Shown here piece by piece: positions 631 to 12,912 of a stretch of DNA of 64,000 bases. The notes under the pieces are model-generated. The model searched no databases. It saw nothing but the letters and a program-made list of their open reading frames with translations, and was not told the origin of the DNA. This DNA is from Betaproteobacteria bacterium. GTDB taxonomy: Bacteria; Pseudomonadota; Gammaproteobacteria; Burkholderiales; Ga0077523. A program made the translations under genes and the position numbers. The number at the start of each line of letters is the position of its first letter. The stretch's first letter is position 1. The stretch is from NCBI GenBank assembly GCA_025350245.1, contig JANXYG010000154.1:1593-65592 (forward strand), read 5' to 3'.

Positions 631-3177
631 ATGGGCAAACTCGGATTCTGGAAAGCGGACTGGTTCGTCGCGGTGGTGATCGCCCTTGTGGTGCTCATCG
701 TGTCGCGCGGATCGGCCATCCAGGGTATCGAACGAGTCGCCTACGACATGGGTGTGCGCGCCACCGGTGAGACGCCGAGCGACCGGATCGCGGTGATCGC
801 CATCGACGACCAGAGCATCGGCAACATCGGCCGCTGGCCCTGGCCACGCGACGTGCACGCGAAGATGATCGACCTGCTCACCCAGGCGAAGGCACGCACG
901 GTCGCCAGCACGGTGTTCTTCGCCGAGCCGCAAGTCGATCCCGGTCTGGTCTACATCAACAAGCTCATCGTTCAGTTCCAGGCCGCCCCGCCGGCGGCGC
1001 AGCAAGCGCTGCCCGAAATGGAGGTCACGCTCGGTGAGGCCGAACAGAACCTGAACACCGACCGCAAGCTTGCTGCGAGCATCGGTGCCGCCAGGAACGT
1101 CGTGCTGGCGATGGTGTTTCAGCAGTTCGATCGCGAACCAATGGGCAACCCCGATGGCGAGTTGCCGTCCTACGTGAAGAACAGCGTCCTGCCGCTGGCG
1201 GCGCAGACCGGCGATGGGGGTGACCTCCCGACCTCGGTCCTGAATCCGGTGATCCCGATCCCGGCCCTGGGCGATGTCGCCAGCGGCGTGGGGCATCTCA
1301 ACACCGGCATCGACGTCGATGGCGGCGTCAGGTCCGAGCCCCTGGTGGTGCGGTACTACGACATGCTGTTTCCCTCGCTGTCGTTGATGGTCGCGGCGCG
1401 CAGCCTGAATCTGCAGACCAAGGACGTTACCGTCCGGTACGGCGAAGGCGTGAAGCTCGGCAAGCTGTCGATTCGTACCGACGCCAATCTGCAGATGCTC
1501 ACCTACTTCTACCGCGATCGCGATGCCAAGCCTGCGTTCCAGGTGGATTCTTTTTACGACGTACTGAGCGGCAAGATTCCAGCCGACAAATATCGCGACA
1601 AGATCGTCCTGATCGGACCCACGGCAGCCGGGCTCGGCACCACGACCGTTACGCCGATTGCGGCGGCGATGTCGCCGGTGCTGATCCTTGCGCACTCGGT
1701 GTCGAGCCTTCTGCAGGAAGACTTCTTCGTTCAGCCCTCGTGGGCGCCGTATGTCTCGCTGGCCGCCATGCTGGTGATCGCGGCCTATCTGGCGCTGGTG
1801 CTGCCGCGGATCAAGGCGGGGTCGGCGGCGCTGATCACGGTGGGCTTGGCGGTGGCACTCATCGGCGCCCACTTCGCCCTGATGACCACCCAGTTGCTGT
1901 GGATCCCCCTGATGGCGCCTGTCGTGCTGCTCGTCATCGGCCATCTGGCGCTCACCACCAAGCGTTTTCTGGTCACCGAGCGTGGCAAGCTGAAGTCCGA
2001 TCTCGAATCCGCCGAATCCAATCGCATGCTCGGGCTCGCGTTCCAGGGGCAGGGGCAGCTCGACATGGCGTTCGACAAGTTCCGCAAGTGTCCGCTCGAT
2101 GCCTCGCTGATGGACAACCTGTACAACCTTGCTCTCGACTTCGAGCGTAAGCGCCAGTTCAACAAGGCGCAGTCCGTGTACGAATACATGGGCGGGCACA
2201 ATCCGAAGTTCCGCGACCTCGAGCAGAAGCTGTCGCGCGCGAAACAGATGTCCGAGACGGTCATTCTCGGCGGCAGCGGCGGCCGGAGCAACGCATCCAC
2301 CATGATTCTCGAGGGTGGTATGGTCGAGAAGCCCATGCTCGGCCGTTACCAGATCGAGAAGGAACTCGGCAAGGGTGCGATGGGCGTGGTGTACCTCGGC
2401 AAGGATCCCAAGATCGGCCGCGTGGTGGCGATCAAGACCATGGCGCTGTCGCAGGAATTCGAGCCCGACGAACTGGAAGACGTGAAGCAGCGGTTCTTCC
2501 GCGAGGCCGAAACCGCCGGGCGCCTGAATCACCCCAACATCGTCACCATCTTCGATGCCGGCGAAGAGCACGATCTCGCCTACATCGCCATGGAGTTTCT
2601 CAAGGGCAAGGACCTTGCCCCCTACGTCAAGGCCGATCGATTGTTGCCGCTGCCGCGGACGATGAGCATCGTTGCCCGGGTCGCCGACGCCCTGAACTAC
2701 GCGCATGCGCAGAATGTCGTGCACCGCGACATCAAGCCGGCCAACATCATGTACGACCCGGAGAGCGATTCGGTGAAAGTCACCGACTTCGGCATCGCGC
2801 GCATCACCGATTCGTCGAAGACCAAGACCGGCATGGTGCTCGGCACGCCCTCGTTCATGTCGCCGGAGCAGCTTGCCGGCCGCAAGATCGATGGCCCTTC
2901 CGACCTGTTTTCGCTCGGCGTCACGCTCTACCAGCTGGCCAGCGGTAGCCTCCCGTTCCAGGGTGAAACCATGACGCAGCTCATGTACAAGATCGCCAAT
3001 GAGCAGCCGATCGACATCCTCAGCGTCAACCCGGCGCTGCCGCCATGTCTGGCTGGCATCATCGATCGTGCCCTGGCCAAGAATGTCGAAGACCGGTTCC
3101 GCAGTGGCGACGAGATGGCGGCGGCGATCCGCCAGTGCGCGGCACAATTGTCATCAACAGTCGGCGTCGTCCTGTAA
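631..3177 (+). CDS. CHASE2-domain membrane Ser/Thr protein kinase
   Basis: N-terminal TM, CHASE2 motifs (IAIDDQSI..GRWPWPR, DVDGGVR, KIVLIG), three TMs, TPR-like segment, Hanks kinase (LGKGAMGVVY, VAIK, HRDIKPAN, DFG, GTPSFMSPE). Confidence 0.93.
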   Translation: MGKLGFWKADWFVAVVIALVVLIVSRGSAIQGIERVAYDMGVRATGETPSDRIAVIAIDDQSIGNIGRWPWPRDVHAKMIDLLTQAKARTVASTVFFAEPQVDPGLVYINKLIVQFQAAPPAAQQALPEMEVTLGEAEQNLNTDRKLAASIGAARNVVLAMVFQQFDREPMGNPDGELPSYVKNSVLPLAAQTGDGGDLPTSVLNPVIPIPALGDVASGVGHLNTGIDVDGGVRSEPLVVRYYDMLFPSLSLMVAARSLNLQTKDVTVRYGEGVKLGKLSIRTDANLQMLTYFYRDRDAKPAFQVDSFYDVLSGKIPADKYRDKIVLIGPTAAGLGTTTVTPIAAAMSPVLILAHSVSSLLQEDFFVQPSWAPYVSLAAMLVIAAYLALVLPRIKAGSAALITVGLAVALIGAHFALMTTQLLWIPLMAPVVLLVIGHLALTTKRFLVTERGKLKSDLESAESNRMLGLAFQGQGQLDMAFDKFRKCPLDASLMDNLYNLALDFERKRQFNKAQSVYEYMGGHNPKFRDLEQKLSRAKQMSETVILGGSGGRSNASTMILEGGMVEKPMLGRYQIEKELGKGAMGVVYLGKDPKIGRVVAIKTMALSQEFEPDELEDVKQRFFREAETAGRLNHPNIVTIFDAGEEHDLAYIAMEFLKGKDLAPYVKADRLLPLPRTMSIVARVADALNYAHAQNVVHRDIKPANIMYDPESDSVKVTDFGIARITDSSKTKTGMVLGTPSFMSPEQLAGRKIDGPSDLFSLGVTLYQLASGSLPFQGETMTQLMYKIANEQPIDILSVNPALPPCLAGIIDRALAKNVEDRFRSGDEMAAAIRQCAAQLSSTVGVVL

Positions 3178-3180
3178 TCC

Positions 3181-4005
3181 ATGAATCTGGTCAAGGCCCT
3201 GGAAATCTCGACCGCCACGCACACCGGCATGGTCCGCTCCCACAACGAAGACGCCTGCGCGGCCGATGGCGAGATCGGTCTCGCCGTTCTCGCCGATGGA
3301 ATGGGGGGCTACAACGCCGGCGAAGTCGCGAGCGGCATCGCGGTGGCGCTGATCACCTCGGAGATGCGCCAAGCCATCGCCCGCACCAGTCTGCACGGTC
3401 TCGATCAGGCCGATGGCGATTTGCAGGCGATCCGGCTGCTCAAGGGCATCACCGCGAAGGCGAACACGTCGATCTACCAATCGGCGAACAGCCAGCCGCA
3501 GTATGCCGGCATGGGCACCACCCTGGTCGTCACCCTGTTCCGCGACAATCGGCTGTCGGTGGCACACATCGGCGACTCGCGCCTTTACCGATTGCGTGAC
3601 GAGCGGCTGGAGCAGATCACCCGCGACCACAGCCTGCTGCAGGAGCAGATCGACGCCGGCATGATCAGCCGCGAAGCGGCCCGGCATTCGCAGAACAAGA
3701 ATCTGGTCACGCGTGCCCTGGGTATCGAGGCCGATGCCGAGGCCGAGATCCATACCTACGACGCGCGACCCGGAGACCTGTACCTGCTCTGCTCCGACGG
3801 GCTGAACGACATGGTCGAGGACGAGGACATCGAACTCACCCTTAACGCCATGGGGGCGAACCTGCCGCTGGCCGCGAACCAGCTGGTGCAGATGGCAAAC
3901 GACAATGGCGGACGTGACAACGTGTCTGTCATTCTGGTGAAAGTGACTCGCGACTTTCCGGCGGCGGAGACCTGGCTCGGCAAGGTCCTGTCGTGGTTCA
4001 AGTAA
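3181..4005 (+). CDS. PP2C-family (Stp1/PppA-like) Ser/Thr phosphatase
   Basis: RSHNED, ADGMGG, MGTT, HIGDSR, LCSDGL and GGRDN motifs. Confidence 0.95.
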   Translation: MNLVKALEISTATHTGMVRSHNEDACAADGEIGLAVLADGMGGYNAGEVASGIAVALITSEMRQAIARTSLHGLDQADGDLQAIRLLKGITAKANTSIYQSANSQPQYAGMGTTLVVTLFRDNRLSVAHIGDSRLYRLRDERLEQITRDHSLLQEQIDAGMISREAARHSQNKNLVTRALGIEADAEAEIHTYDARPGDLYLLCSDGLNDMVEDEDIELTLNAMGANLPLAANQLVQMANDNGGRDNVSVILVKVTRDFPAAETWLGKVLSWFK

Positions 4006-4021
4006 ACACAGGGATGGTGCT

Positions 4022-12169: not shown

Positions 12170-12383
12170 GAACTGCCGATCACGTCGATGAGGCATTGAT
12201 TGTTCATTGCGTTCGTCGACGGCATTTCGTTTTAAATCTATCGTTTGGTAAGTATTTTTGCGCTATACGCTCCGATCGAAAAACCTCGCGCAAATTTTTT
12301 CGAGCTGTTCCAACGCTCATGTTTCGACCCATGTGCCTCACCTGACGCACCCGGGCAGTTTTTAGGGGTTGTCGGGGCCTCAC

Positions 12384-12398
12384 TGGCATACCGCTTGC
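12384..12398 (+). promoter_or_regulatory. sigma54 (-24/-12) promoter of pilin gene
   Basis: TGGCAT-ACCGC-TTGC matches TGGCAC-N5-TTGC with exact spacing, 70 bp upstream of the pilin ATG. Confidence 0.8.
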
Positions 12399-12468
12399 CT
12401 TTAGTCCCGCCGCACAGTGCCCGTTCGTGTCTCACGTTCATCACCACCCATTACATCAGGAGCTCCAC

Positions 12469-12912
12469 ATGAAGCGCATCCAGCAAGGTTTCACACTTAT
12501 CGAACTGATGATCGTGGTCGCGATCATCGGCATCCTGGCGGCGGTCGCGCTGCCGGCCTATCAGGACTACACCATCCGCGCCAGGCTTCAGGAAGCGGTC
12601 AGCCTCTCGGACCCGGCCCGTCTGTCCGTTGGTCAGGCTTGTTCCGAGGGGACGCTGGGCGCCGCCGCCACTTCTAACGGCGTTACCGACAACGCGTCGG
12701 CCGGCCTTGCGACGTCGATCACCGGAAAATACGTAACCAGCGTCGTCCTTACGACAGCGAGTACTGCTTCCGGGGTGGTGACCGTCGTGGTGAGAGCGAT
12801 CAACGCTGCGGTAGATGGTTCCAACATCGTCTGGACATCCACCTGCGACGCAGCCGGCAACCGTTGGGCGATCACCGGCAGCATCGCTGCGAAGTATCTC
12901 CCGAAGACCTGA
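12469..12912 (+). CDS. pilA: Type IVa major pilin
   Basis: [34 protein letters not shown] prepilin motif; AGGAG RBS; sigma54 promoter upstream and terminator downstream. Confidence 0.95.

Follow-up and report, generated by a model that had tools for sequence, protein, structure and literature searches.

A conserved betaproteobacterial gene cluster that may place a PilB-family pilus ATPase under cyclic AMP and phospho-threonine control

A cluster of eight co-oriented genes, seven encoding signalling proteins and the last a type IV pilin, lies near the start of the 64,000-nucleotide stretch analysed here (the window; contig JANXYG010000154.1 of assembly GCA_025350245.1, from a member of the Betaproteobacteria). 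On the forward strand, the first gene (positions 631–3177) encodes an 848-residue protein in which a CHASE2 sensor domain (residues 18–383, E 3.8e-52) is joined through a transmembrane region to a Hanks-type Ser/Thr kinase (Pkinase, residues 573–823, E 9.5e-55). There follow, all on the same strand, a PP2C Ser/Thr phosphatase of 274 residues (3181–4005; Pfam PP2C_2, PP2C and SpoIIE; NCBIfam Stp1/IreP at 245 bits against a cut-off of 230), a two-domain FHA protein (4022–4789; Pfam FHA, residues 23–86, E 1.7e-20), and a second CHASE2–transmembrane protein, ending in a class III nucleotide cyclase predicted to be an adenylate cyclase (4831–7104, start codon uncertain; CHASE2, residues 33–398, E 1.3e-57; Guanylate_cyc, residues 499–671, E 1.4e-18). 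Next come a binuclear metallohydrolase of the metallo-beta-lactamase (MBL) fold, a candidate cyclic mononucleotide (cNMP) phosphodiesterase of 254 residues (7107–7871, the listed open reading frame beginning at 6954; Lactamase_B_2, E 1.8e-18), and a 796-residue ATPase of the PilB/GspE type preceded by GAF and MshEN domains (7999–10389, alternative GTG start at 7963; Pfam GAF, MshEN and T2SSE, E 2.2e-115), hereafter the GAF-ATPase. The set is completed by a GAF–HD-GYP phosphodiesterase of 554 residues (10492–12156; Pfam GAF, with split HD and HD_5 matches that form one HD-GYP domain) and a pilA-like type IVa major pilin (12469–12912, alternative start at 12427; Pfam N_methyl and Pilin). Domain assignments are from Pfam and NCBIfam profile searches of the window proteins, and they bear out the eight co-oriented genes that an initial annotation, made from the sequence alone, had placed at these positions.

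With starts picked from ortholog alignments, the gaps between successive genes, from kinase to pilin, measured 3, 16, 41, 2, 127, 102 and 312 nt. A GT4 glycosyltransferase gene upstream of the kinase was conserved in close kin only, so the conserved unit begins at the kinase gene; on the downstream side the pilin is followed by a methyltransferase gene and then, on the opposite strand, by a gene for a tetratricopeptide repeat (TPR)–GT41 protein.

The arrangement was widely conserved. A scan of one genome per species turned up relatives of the ATPase in at least 600 stretches, and the best 80 loci were analysed. Their ATPases were 65–84% identical to that of the window, and their source labels, comprising both metagenome-assembled genomes (MAGs) and isolates, included Gallionella, Sideroxydans, Nitrosomonadales, Nitrosomonas-type, Rhodocyclaceae, Sulfuricella, Pelomicrobium and Chitinimonas, with others. 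Gene order, followed by tblastn with the eight window proteins as queries, was the same in most loci. Among the 57 loci whose flanks extended 9 kb or more upstream and 1.9 kb or more downstream of the ATPase gene (coverage of at least 85% required), 31/57 contained all seven signalling genes in the order kinase, PP2C, FHA, cyclase, MBL, GAF-ATPase, GAF-HD-GYP, and a further 4/57 missed just a full-coverage FHA match, the linker of this protein being divergent. Because 31 of these fully flanked loci keep the seven genes in order, the arrangement exceeds chance; the synteny on which the initial annotation had made its proposal depend is conserved across many betaproteobacterial lineages.

Partial forms of the cluster were also found. 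Eight of the 57 loci kept PP2C, FHA, MBL and ATPase genes with both CHASE2 genes gone (HD-GYP present in 7 of these); the kinase alone was missing in 4/57 (one of the four also without a full FHA match), the cyclase alone in 1/57, the MBL gene in 2/57 and the HD-GYP gene in 2/57. Five loci were core-only: ATPase alone (2), MBL-ATPase-HD-GYP (2) and MBL-ATPase (1). Both CHASE2 genes were thus absent in 13/57 loci (eight with PP2C and FHA, five core-only), and the most persistent part of the cluster was the MBL-ATPase-HD-GYP core. More broadly, the ATPase GAF region was matched in 197/401 genomes and 73/167 genera sampled from the order, a count that includes a few matches (families f3 and f44) no better than E 1e-11 to 1e-12, which may represent other GAF proteins. 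In the rest of the class it was matched in 8/200 other genomes, at 34–48% identity. In a protein database 6045 entries matched at E ≤1e-10, with only generic source names among the 120 listed.

Could such a block be a co-inherited collection of independent modules, in which kinase/PP2C/FHA, cyclase/phosphodiesterase and ATPase plus HD-GYP are unrelated and share no common output? The block does come apart, as the eight loci without CHASE2 genes and the five reduced to the core attest. Set against this, order and gaps of 2–127 nt are kept at 50–90% protein identity across many lineages, writer, eraser and a pair of receptors for a single type of messenger stand side by side in the cluster, and the persisting sub-modules are always anchored on the ATPase. 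We consider independence of the modules quite improbable. The coupling of the kinase and cyclase branches, for which the initial annotation had proposed a single extracellular cue, is another matter: identity between the two CHASE2 domains is just 25% and the kinase and cyclase are lost in separate loci, so that the shared cue gains no support and the coupling is suggestive rather than strict.

The protein at the centre of this core belongs to the PilB/GspE superfamily (PF00437, T2SSE, 385.7 bits). In an alignment of 26 ATPase sequences the Walker A (GPTGSGKTT), Walker B, Asp box and His box (TLHTNSA) residues and the four Cys were invariant (26/26), and about 60 additional residues were present between the two CxxC pairs. 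All NCBIfam equivalog cut-offs were nevertheless missed (PilB TIGR02538, 489.6 against 675.65 bits; GspE, 449.6 against 630.25; TfpB, 389.5 against 850), and identity to PilB, GspE, TfpB and two other paralogs was 34–37%. By these comparisons the GAF-ATPase is a separate subfamily.

The subfamily is set apart further by its MshEN domain. Cyclic di-GMP (c-di-GMP) binding by MshEN depends on two 24-residue motifs defined in PMC5013675; by comparison with M. xanthus PilB, R1, G3 and Q24 were replaced in both half-motifs of the window protein, and neither a relaxed nor a strict regular expression for the c-di-GMP motif matched its MshEN. The same was seen across 71 ATPase sequences, in which Q24 was Ala and G3 of motif II Glu in all 71, with Tyr in 67 at G3 of motif I (the ATPases of loci L017, L069 and L079, with over-extended boundaries, were left out of this set and of the 26-sequence alignment). 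The Pfam match to the MshEN fold was retained, at 45.4 bits, and the segment was highly conserved in the family despite degeneration of the motif. A degenerate motif in a conserved segment points to MshEN having been kept in this subfamily for a different function.

In front of MshEN lies a GAF domain, and its affinities were consistent. The GAF region of the ATPase gave 20 matches to solved structures at E ≤0.001, all of them cNMP-type GAF domains or PmGH; the best was the CyaB2 tandem (E 2.8e-24), with PDE2A, PDE5, PDE6 and PDE10A among the others. The GAF domain of the HD-GYP protein gave the same set of matches, with PDE5 at E 2e-12 beside CyaB2, PDE2A and PDE10A. Both domains therefore belong by sequence to the cNMP-binding subgroup of GAF domains (PDE2/5/6/10 and CyaB2 type), in which CyaB2 presumably binds cyclic AMP (cAMP), and the candidate cNMP-receptor role put forward in the initial annotation gains support, since almost only GAF domains of this type were matched. 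Given degenerate MshEN motifs and a fused cNMP-type GAF domain, the predicted ligand of the ATPase would be a cyclic mononucleotide and not c-di-GMP.

A predicted source for such a ligand is encoded two genes upstream. The nearest solved structures of the cyclase domain were Synechocystis Cya2, P. aeruginosa CyaB and Spirulina CyaC. In class III cyclases, adenylate cyclase activity is specified by a substrate pair of Lys and Asp/Thr. The cluster cyclase has Lys547 (tidKymGD) and Thr621 (maYTvmGD) at these positions, as do CyaB and CyaC, whereas in the same alignments Cya2, which we take to be a guanylate cyclase, has Glu and Gly. D507 and D551 (metal-binding), K547, T621, N628 and R632 were invariant in 54/54 sequences, so that the metal Asp pair, the Asn/Arg pair and the Lys/Thr substrate pair of a class III adenylate cyclase are all present. 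With this pair and the catalytic Asp, Asn and Arg invariant, cAMP is the likely product.

Further cNMP-reading proteins were found in and around the cluster. In 32/80 loci an additional gene, encoding a cNMP_binding domain and a Rhodanese domain, was inserted between the MBL and ATPase genes (for example L013, 8908–9966, forward strand); its reading frame was fixed by a six-frame conservation test, and no ortholog was found in the genome of the window. Loosely associated with the cluster, downstream at 22364–23707 on the forward strand of the window, is a gene for a Ser/Thr kinase fused to a cNMP-binding domain (Pfam Pkinase, residues 16–265; cNMP_binding, residues 323–400). Full-length orthologs of this fusion (54–67% identity, at least 95% coverage) lay downstream of the cluster in five divergent loci (L006, L007, L024, L031 and L036). 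The inserted gene and the downstream fusion together show that the cluster is repeatedly associated with cyclic-mononucleotide readers. The fusion may itself be a bacterial cAMP-dependent kinase tied to the same circuit, providing an extra link between cAMP and phospho-threonine (pThr). A gene for an M48-TPR peptidase (window 18987–20978, forward strand) also recurred downstream of the cluster, in 8 loci.

The same architecture might operate with another messenger, the GAF domains binding cyclic GMP (cGMP) or a non-nucleotide ligand and the cyclase serving other receptors. Many of the solved GAF matches are the cGMP-specific domains of PDE5 and PDE6, the ligand of the PmGH GAF is given as unknown (bioRxiv 10.1101/2021.11.05.467447), the window ATPase departs from the family consensus at Asn-Lys, and clusters without the cyclase exist (the 13/57 loci lacking both CHASE2 genes and the one lacking the cyclase only). 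That possibility is judged unlikely in view of the Lys/Thr adenylate cyclase pair in all 54 co-encoded cyclases, the CyaB2 tandem as best GAF match, and the addition, in the 32/80 loci described above, of a second and unrelated cNMP receptor fold.

The GAF–HD-GYP protein adds to the circuit a third messenger, c-di-GMP, that the initial annotation had missed; this assignment comes from its sequence motifs, the HD and HHExxDGxGYP motifs of HD-GYP proteins and their RPYK specificity motif being invariant in 55/55 sequences. The best solved match was PmGH (4mcw; E 7.7e-29); the alignment breaks off at residue 301 and resumes at 406, and the catalytic domain carries an insertion of about 100 residues at the KPG lid. 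Comparable insertions adjacent to GAF are described in REC-GAF-HD-GYP proteins (PMC12943098). In the GAF–HD-GYP protein Tlr0485, c-di-GMP hydrolysis depends on cAMP binding to the GAF domain (bioRxiv 10.1101/2021.11.05.467447). In one Methylotenera MAG (L053, 12479–13930, forward strand), in which the rest of the cluster was absent, the gene after the GAF-ATPase, in the place of HD-GYP, encoded a PAS-GAF-GGDEF diguanylate cyclase.

Assignment of the MBL protein was less clear. Its metal ligands, HxHxDH (H53, H55, D57 and H58), H138, D159 and H221, were invariant in 29/29 sequences, and its structure model had a predicted local distance difference test score (pLDDT) of 90.8. Evidence for phosphodiesterase activity was local: a weak PDEase_II match (PF02112, 27.9 against a cut-off of 23.7 bits) confined to residues 95–156, and a 61-residue match to yeast PDE1 (4ojv; E 7.7e-5), around an HLDH...HiFNwliWPD motif. 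PDE1 also matched the fold of the model with the highest query coverage (TMq 0.80). The NCBIfam family 'cyclic nucleotide-degrading phosphodiesterase' scored 31 against a cut-off of 400. Of the class II cNMP phosphodiesterase of the initial annotation, the MBL hydrolase stands and the class II assignment is the least secure of the eight labels, its Pfam match covering only 62 residues and the fold neighbours including RNase Z as much as PDE1. Beside a cyclase and two candidate receptors, hydrolysis of cAMP is the most economical reading of this protein, although the assignment, from model and sequence, is weak.

A cyclase, a hydrolase of this fold and a kinase might also suggest anti-phage defence of the cyclic-nucleotide kind, with a Pycsar-like cyclase, an Apyc1-like hydrolase and a PD-T4-6-like kinase. 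The PADLOC models matched were PycC for the cyclase domain (best score 107.5 bits) and PD-T4-6 for the kinase domain (313.5 bits), and Apyc1, an anti-Pycsar nuclease that presumably degrades cNMPs, was among the fold neighbours of the MBL protein. These are domain-level matches, however, such as any Hanks kinase or class III cyclase gives; the FHA, MBL, HD-GYP and pilin proteins had no PADLOC match, and no TIR, pore or nuclease effector was found among the called domains. The stable context of the cluster, in 197/401 genomes of the order and at 50–84% identity, is moreover unlike that of patchy defence islands, and a defence role is very improbable indeed. The remaining PADLOC matches were two weak ones of PDC-M21C to PP2C (best 37.5 bits) and two weak ones of mad8/mad3 to the ATPase core. 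Identity with a known anti-phage system was rejected, PADLOC having returned only domain-level kinase and cyclase matches and weak PP2C and ATPase matches.

The first three genes of the cluster form a pThr branch. In the kinase, K602, HRD and DFG were invariant in 37/37 sequences. A juxtamembrane motif, SET543VIL, had T in 36/37 and L in 36/37, and a second, AST557xxL, had T in 29/37. The FHA protein consists of a canonical FHA domain (residues 1–95), a disordered linker and a conserved C-terminal FHA-like beta domain (residues 165–253), its structure model showing two beta domains. In the N-terminal domain the canonical pThr-binding residues G26, R27, S41, H44, S61, T62 and N63 were all invariant (29/29). 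The C-terminal domain was related to it in hhalign (86% probability, E 5e-6) and was without the SxxH loop and Arg, the pThr-binding residues being absent. Within the linker, K107 and T108 of the motif FEKT108MVLR were invariant in 29/29. FHA domains prefer pTxxL, and in GarA/OdhI binding of pThr by the FHA domain is intramolecular. The T108 linker and SET543VIL both fit this preference, from which we infer a GarA/OdhI-like switch; by its sequence the FHA protein looks like a self-contained switch of the GarA type. Its best NCBIfam matches, OdhI and FhaB/FipA, were both below cut-off.

A set of kinase, phosphatase and FHA protein is known from PpkA/PppA/Fha1 of the type VI secretion system (T6SS), where the gene for a membrane-bound Hanks kinase is grouped with those for a PP2C and an FHA protein beside the secretion machine. 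The cluster resembles that system in placing a kinase-PP2C-FHA set next to a component of a secretion-type machine. It differs in its CHASE2 sensor, in having a pilus ATPase as neighbour, and in the score of the FHA protein against TagH, which was below the cut-off (42.8 against 120.25 bits). TssC/VipB (PF05943) was not found in the genome of the window, which is 95.84% complete, in agreement with the observation of the initial annotation that no T6SS gene was present in the window; since no TssC gene was found in the genome, a T6SS role is excluded for the cluster here. Like GarA/OdhI of actinobacteria, found with PknB/PknG and PstP, the FHA protein of the cluster is small and carries, beyond its FHA domain, a conserved Thr that could be phosphorylated; in the cluster protein this Thr is C-terminal to the FHA domain, in the linker, and is followed by a second, degenerate FHA-like domain.

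Which machine the GAF-ATPase drives was approached through its neighbours and through the inventory of motors in the genomes encoding it. The neighbouring pilin has the canonical N-terminus of a type IVa major pilin and was the sole such gene in the genome of the window by a regular-expression scan. An equivalent pilin lay no more than 1 kb downstream, on the same strand, in 29/58 loci; it was farther away in 11, and none was present in the flank of 18. The gene is likely to be its own transcription unit. About 70 nt upstream of its start is a candidate sigma-54 type promoter, TGGCATACCGCTTGC (12384–12398, forward strand), with one mismatch to the consensus; this match is only a lead, by position alone, the pattern being no more frequent window-wide (73 matches) than in shuffles (mean 74.3). 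Over positions 1–13700, neither sigma-70 promoters (3 sites against 2.3 in shuffles) nor terminators (8 against 8.1) were in excess.

Several features of the pilin neighbourhood may be recorded. Some loci had two or three pilin copies after the cluster, and in Chitinimonas, Parachitinimonas and Sterolibacteriaceae loci (L067, L069 and L070) the pilin was very short, with 54–56 residues from the GFTLIE motif to the stop. In the window the pilin is flanked by genes for a small methyltransferase (12864–13544, forward strand) and for the TPR-GT41 protein, which has 933 residues and is O-GlcNAc-transferase-like (13570–16371, reverse strand). Homologs of the latter were near the cluster in 12 loci and of the methyltransferase in 3 close relatives, and the two proteins may modify the pilin. 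A gene for a dihaem cytochrome c of the SoxA/TsdA type (16961–17923, reverse strand), conserved near the cluster in 6 loci, is probably a matter of unrelated sulfur metabolism. In loci L051 and L053 a pilD gene near the ATPase was considered as a sign of a pil cluster and rejected, the intervening ZapD, PCuAC, ThiE-NUDIX, DUF815 and ArgJ genes being unrelated.

The genome of the window encodes five long ATPases of the PilB/GspE type against four platform proteins and four secretins. Three of the five sit with their own platform and secretin; the GAF-ATPase and a TfpB-type ATPase are orphans, the latter a TfpB equivalog at 907.6 bits against a cut-off of 850. The pilC-pilD pair follows directly on a CNNM/CorC gene with no pilB between (contig C17; locus L082, 4846–8506), whereas in a genome of the same genus (locus L093) the order is CNNM-pilB-pilC-pilD. 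PilB was above the NCBIfam cut-off in all nine other genomes of the genus and in the window's genome was not, so that pilB seems to have been lost there from its usual locus, in an assembly 95.84% complete. Only one of the five long ATPases (contig C43; locus L086, 8110–9798) kept the strict c-di-GMP motif of MshEN (RLGELLVQQGLVTPDQLRIALTEQ). The N-terminal region of the TfpB-type ATPase (contig C122; locus L083, 2172–7442, reverse strand) gave no match to the relaxed or the strict expression, and its gene adjoins one for a 1114-residue MASE1-PAS-GGDEF-EAL protein.

Elsewhere in the order, motor repertoires varied between families (PilB presence judged at E ≤1e-190). The GAF-ATPase occurred together with both PilB and TfpB in families f1, f17, f19 and f28, with TfpB and essentially no PilB in f7, f14, f16, f29 and f30, and with neither in f20 (8/9 genomes) and f21 (9/9); at near-cut-off thresholds PilB and TfpB were found in 0/9 f20 genomes. 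A general replacement of PilB by the GAF-ATPase was rejected, as f1, f17, f19 and f28 have both and f7, f14, f16, f20, f21 and f30, of these two, the GAF-ATPase only. In the complete f20 genomes G019 and G170 the only long ATPases were the GAF-ATPase and one of the type found on contig C125 of the window's genome. This second ATPase adjoins a platform gene by position, with a second secretin about 4 kb away; in G019, for which homology was checked, it is 65% identical to the C125 paralog and stands beside a PilC-like gene. PilM, PilQ and a separate, orphan PilC were also present in G019 and G170. A third complete f20 genome, G212, had the same set and a shorter ATPase (open frame of 464 residues) with its own platform-like genes and a secretin nearby. 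Because every other long ATPase of G019 and G170 lies beside its own platform, the GAF-ATPase is by elimination the candidate type IVa pilus extension motor there.

These data also bear on the possibility that the GAF-ATPase is no type IVa pilus motor, and serves instead some other type II secretion-like or unfamiliar process, or acts as a signalling NTPase, the pilin being a frequent but unrelated neighbour. It is about equally distant from PilB, GspE, TfpB and two paralogs (34–37% identity), misses all three equivalog cut-offs, co-occurs with PilB and TfpB in four families, has no platform protein encoded beside it, and in 29/58 loci lacks a pilin directly downstream. Adjacency to a pilin nevertheless recurs in divergent lineages, always with the canonical major pilin N-terminus, no variation was seen in the Walker, Asp box and His box residues or in the four Cys, and in G019 and G170 PilM, PilQ and PilC are left with the GAF-ATPase only. 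A role outside the pilus is hence held to be unlikely, and the GAF-ATPase is probably a pilus motor. The initial annotation had allowed for a pilus or a secretion motor. Of these, it is the pilus that gene order and inventory favour, with pilA directly downstream in 29/58 loci and, in two or more of the three complete f20 genomes, no long ATPase but the GAF-ATPase left without a machine of its own.

Taken together, the cluster is best read as an operon for post-translational control of a type IVa pilus extension ATPase, through a cAMP-gated motor with a private cAMP circuit, cross-talk to c-di-GMP and an FHA switch, a reading to which, from sequence, we give a probability of roughly 0.55. Its proposed steps are, in falling order of strength, cAMP synthesis, reading by GAF, pilus extension, reset by the MBL protein and the FHA switch. 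The CHASE2-gated cyclase would make cAMP, which would be read by the GAF domain of a PilB-family ATPase whose ancestral c-di-GMP motif in MshEN has decayed, and also by the GAF domain of the HD-GYP enzyme, which would then hydrolyse c-di-GMP as Tlr0485 does. The GAF-ATPase would power extension of a type IVa pilus built of the neighbouring pilin, as the only candidate motor in some genomes and beside PilB and/or TfpB in others, and the MBL-fold hydrolase would degrade cAMP, resetting the signal. The CHASE2 kinase and PP2C would toggle the small FHA protein along the lines of GarA/OdhI. The canonical FHA domain of this protein may dock on phospho-Thr in a TxxL motif, located either in the juxtamembrane segment of the kinase or in the linker of the FHA protein itself (T108); the degenerate second FHA-like domain, thereby freed or masked, could then act upon the motor or the cNMP enzymes.

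A number of observations weigh against this scheme. The pilin is not directly downstream in half of the loci, as noted above, and the presence in families f1, f17, f19 and f28 of PilB and TfpB alongside the GAF-ATPase means that it is not the only motor everywhere and might have another role in those families. In its NKFDE-like stretch the window ATPase carries Asn-His where the family consensus is Asn-Lys, which makes cNMP binding less certain for this protein in particular. A c-di-GMP enzyme persists beside an ATPase whose own c-di-GMP motifs are degenerate, mostly HD-GYP but PAS-GAF-GGDEF in L053, where the rest of the cluster is lost; c-di-GMP may act elsewhere in the pathway. The HD-GYP protein has an insertion of about 100 residues at its KPG lid that could alter the substrate. 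In fold the MBL protein comes closest to ElaC, YhfI and RNase Z, ahead of PDE1 and Apyc1, and its best NCBIfam match is RNase Z, far below cut-off. Finally, the kinase is absent with the cyclase retained in 4/57 loci, and the converse holds in 1/57.

Each part of the scheme has counterparts among known systems. The MshE/PilB-type ATPases (V. cholerae MshE, M. xanthus PilB and T. thermophilus PilF) are, like the GAF-ATPase, hexameric motors of the PilB/GspE family with an N-terminal MshEN domain (PMC5013675). In both cases a nucleotide second messenger would be read by the motor protein, here as a prediction from sequence, but in the cluster proteins the c-di-GMP motifs are degenerate in 71/71 and a cNMP-type GAF domain stands in front. 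Tlr0485 of Thermosynechococcus and PmGH share the GAF–HD-GYP architecture and differ from the cluster protein, which has the insertion at its KPG lid and whose gene shares an operon with those for the cyclase, the hydrolase and the motor ATPase. A link between cAMP and type IV pilus function is reportedly also made by Cya1/SYCRP1 of cyanobacteria. The Pil-Chp/CyaB/Vfr system of P. aeruginosa ties cAMP to type IV pili too, and CyaB is the adenylate cyclase closest to that of the cluster; the sensor there is a chemosensory array as opposed to CHASE2. Whereas cAMP acts through a transcription factor in that system (PMC11656802), the predicted receptor here is the motor. Acinetobacter baylyi uses two extension motors, PilB and TfpB, on one type IVa pilus (PMC8213720, PMC11656802). 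The genome of the window similarly pairs a TfpB equivalog with the GAF-ATPase, the difference being that the second motor is a GAF-fused paralog and not PilB, with pilB absent before pilC-pilD.

In the parts consulted, a 2024 review of PilB control deals with c-di-GMP, PilZ/FimX, inhibitory peptides and transcriptional cAMP (PMC11656802), and the words GAF and FHA have zero occurrences in that review. Searches of the full-text literature, with subscription journals and supplements outside their reach, turned up no account of the cluster or of a PilB fused to GAF. Control of PilB-type motors by second messengers, GAF–HD-GYP cross-talk and kinase/PP2C/FHA triads are each known separately; what appears new is their fusion around a predicted cNMP-reading pilus motor. 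A bolder claim, held tentatively and at rather less than even odds, is that this would be the first PilB-family motor gated directly by a cyclic mononucleotide, with a cAMP-binding GAF domain taking over from the decayed c-di-GMP site of MshEN, its own source and sink of cAMP, a cAMP-activated c-di-GMP hydrolase and an FHA switch controlled through a second CHASE2 protein, present in about half of the sampled betaproteobacterial genomes and in some lineages the sole available extension ATPase for type IVa pili.

The switching-on of pilus extension at the motor itself is a live question, and the module considered here is common in the environmental betaproteobacteria sampled, in which pili serve surface life, DNA uptake and possibly mineral contact. 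If the proposal is correct, it would provide an example of wired cross-talk between cAMP, c-di-GMP and phospho-threonine, and the orphan CHASE2 sensor domain would gain two readable outputs. Direct reading of cAMP by a motor that is encoded alongside enzymes for the synthesis and removal of this signal would then constitute a new mode of control.

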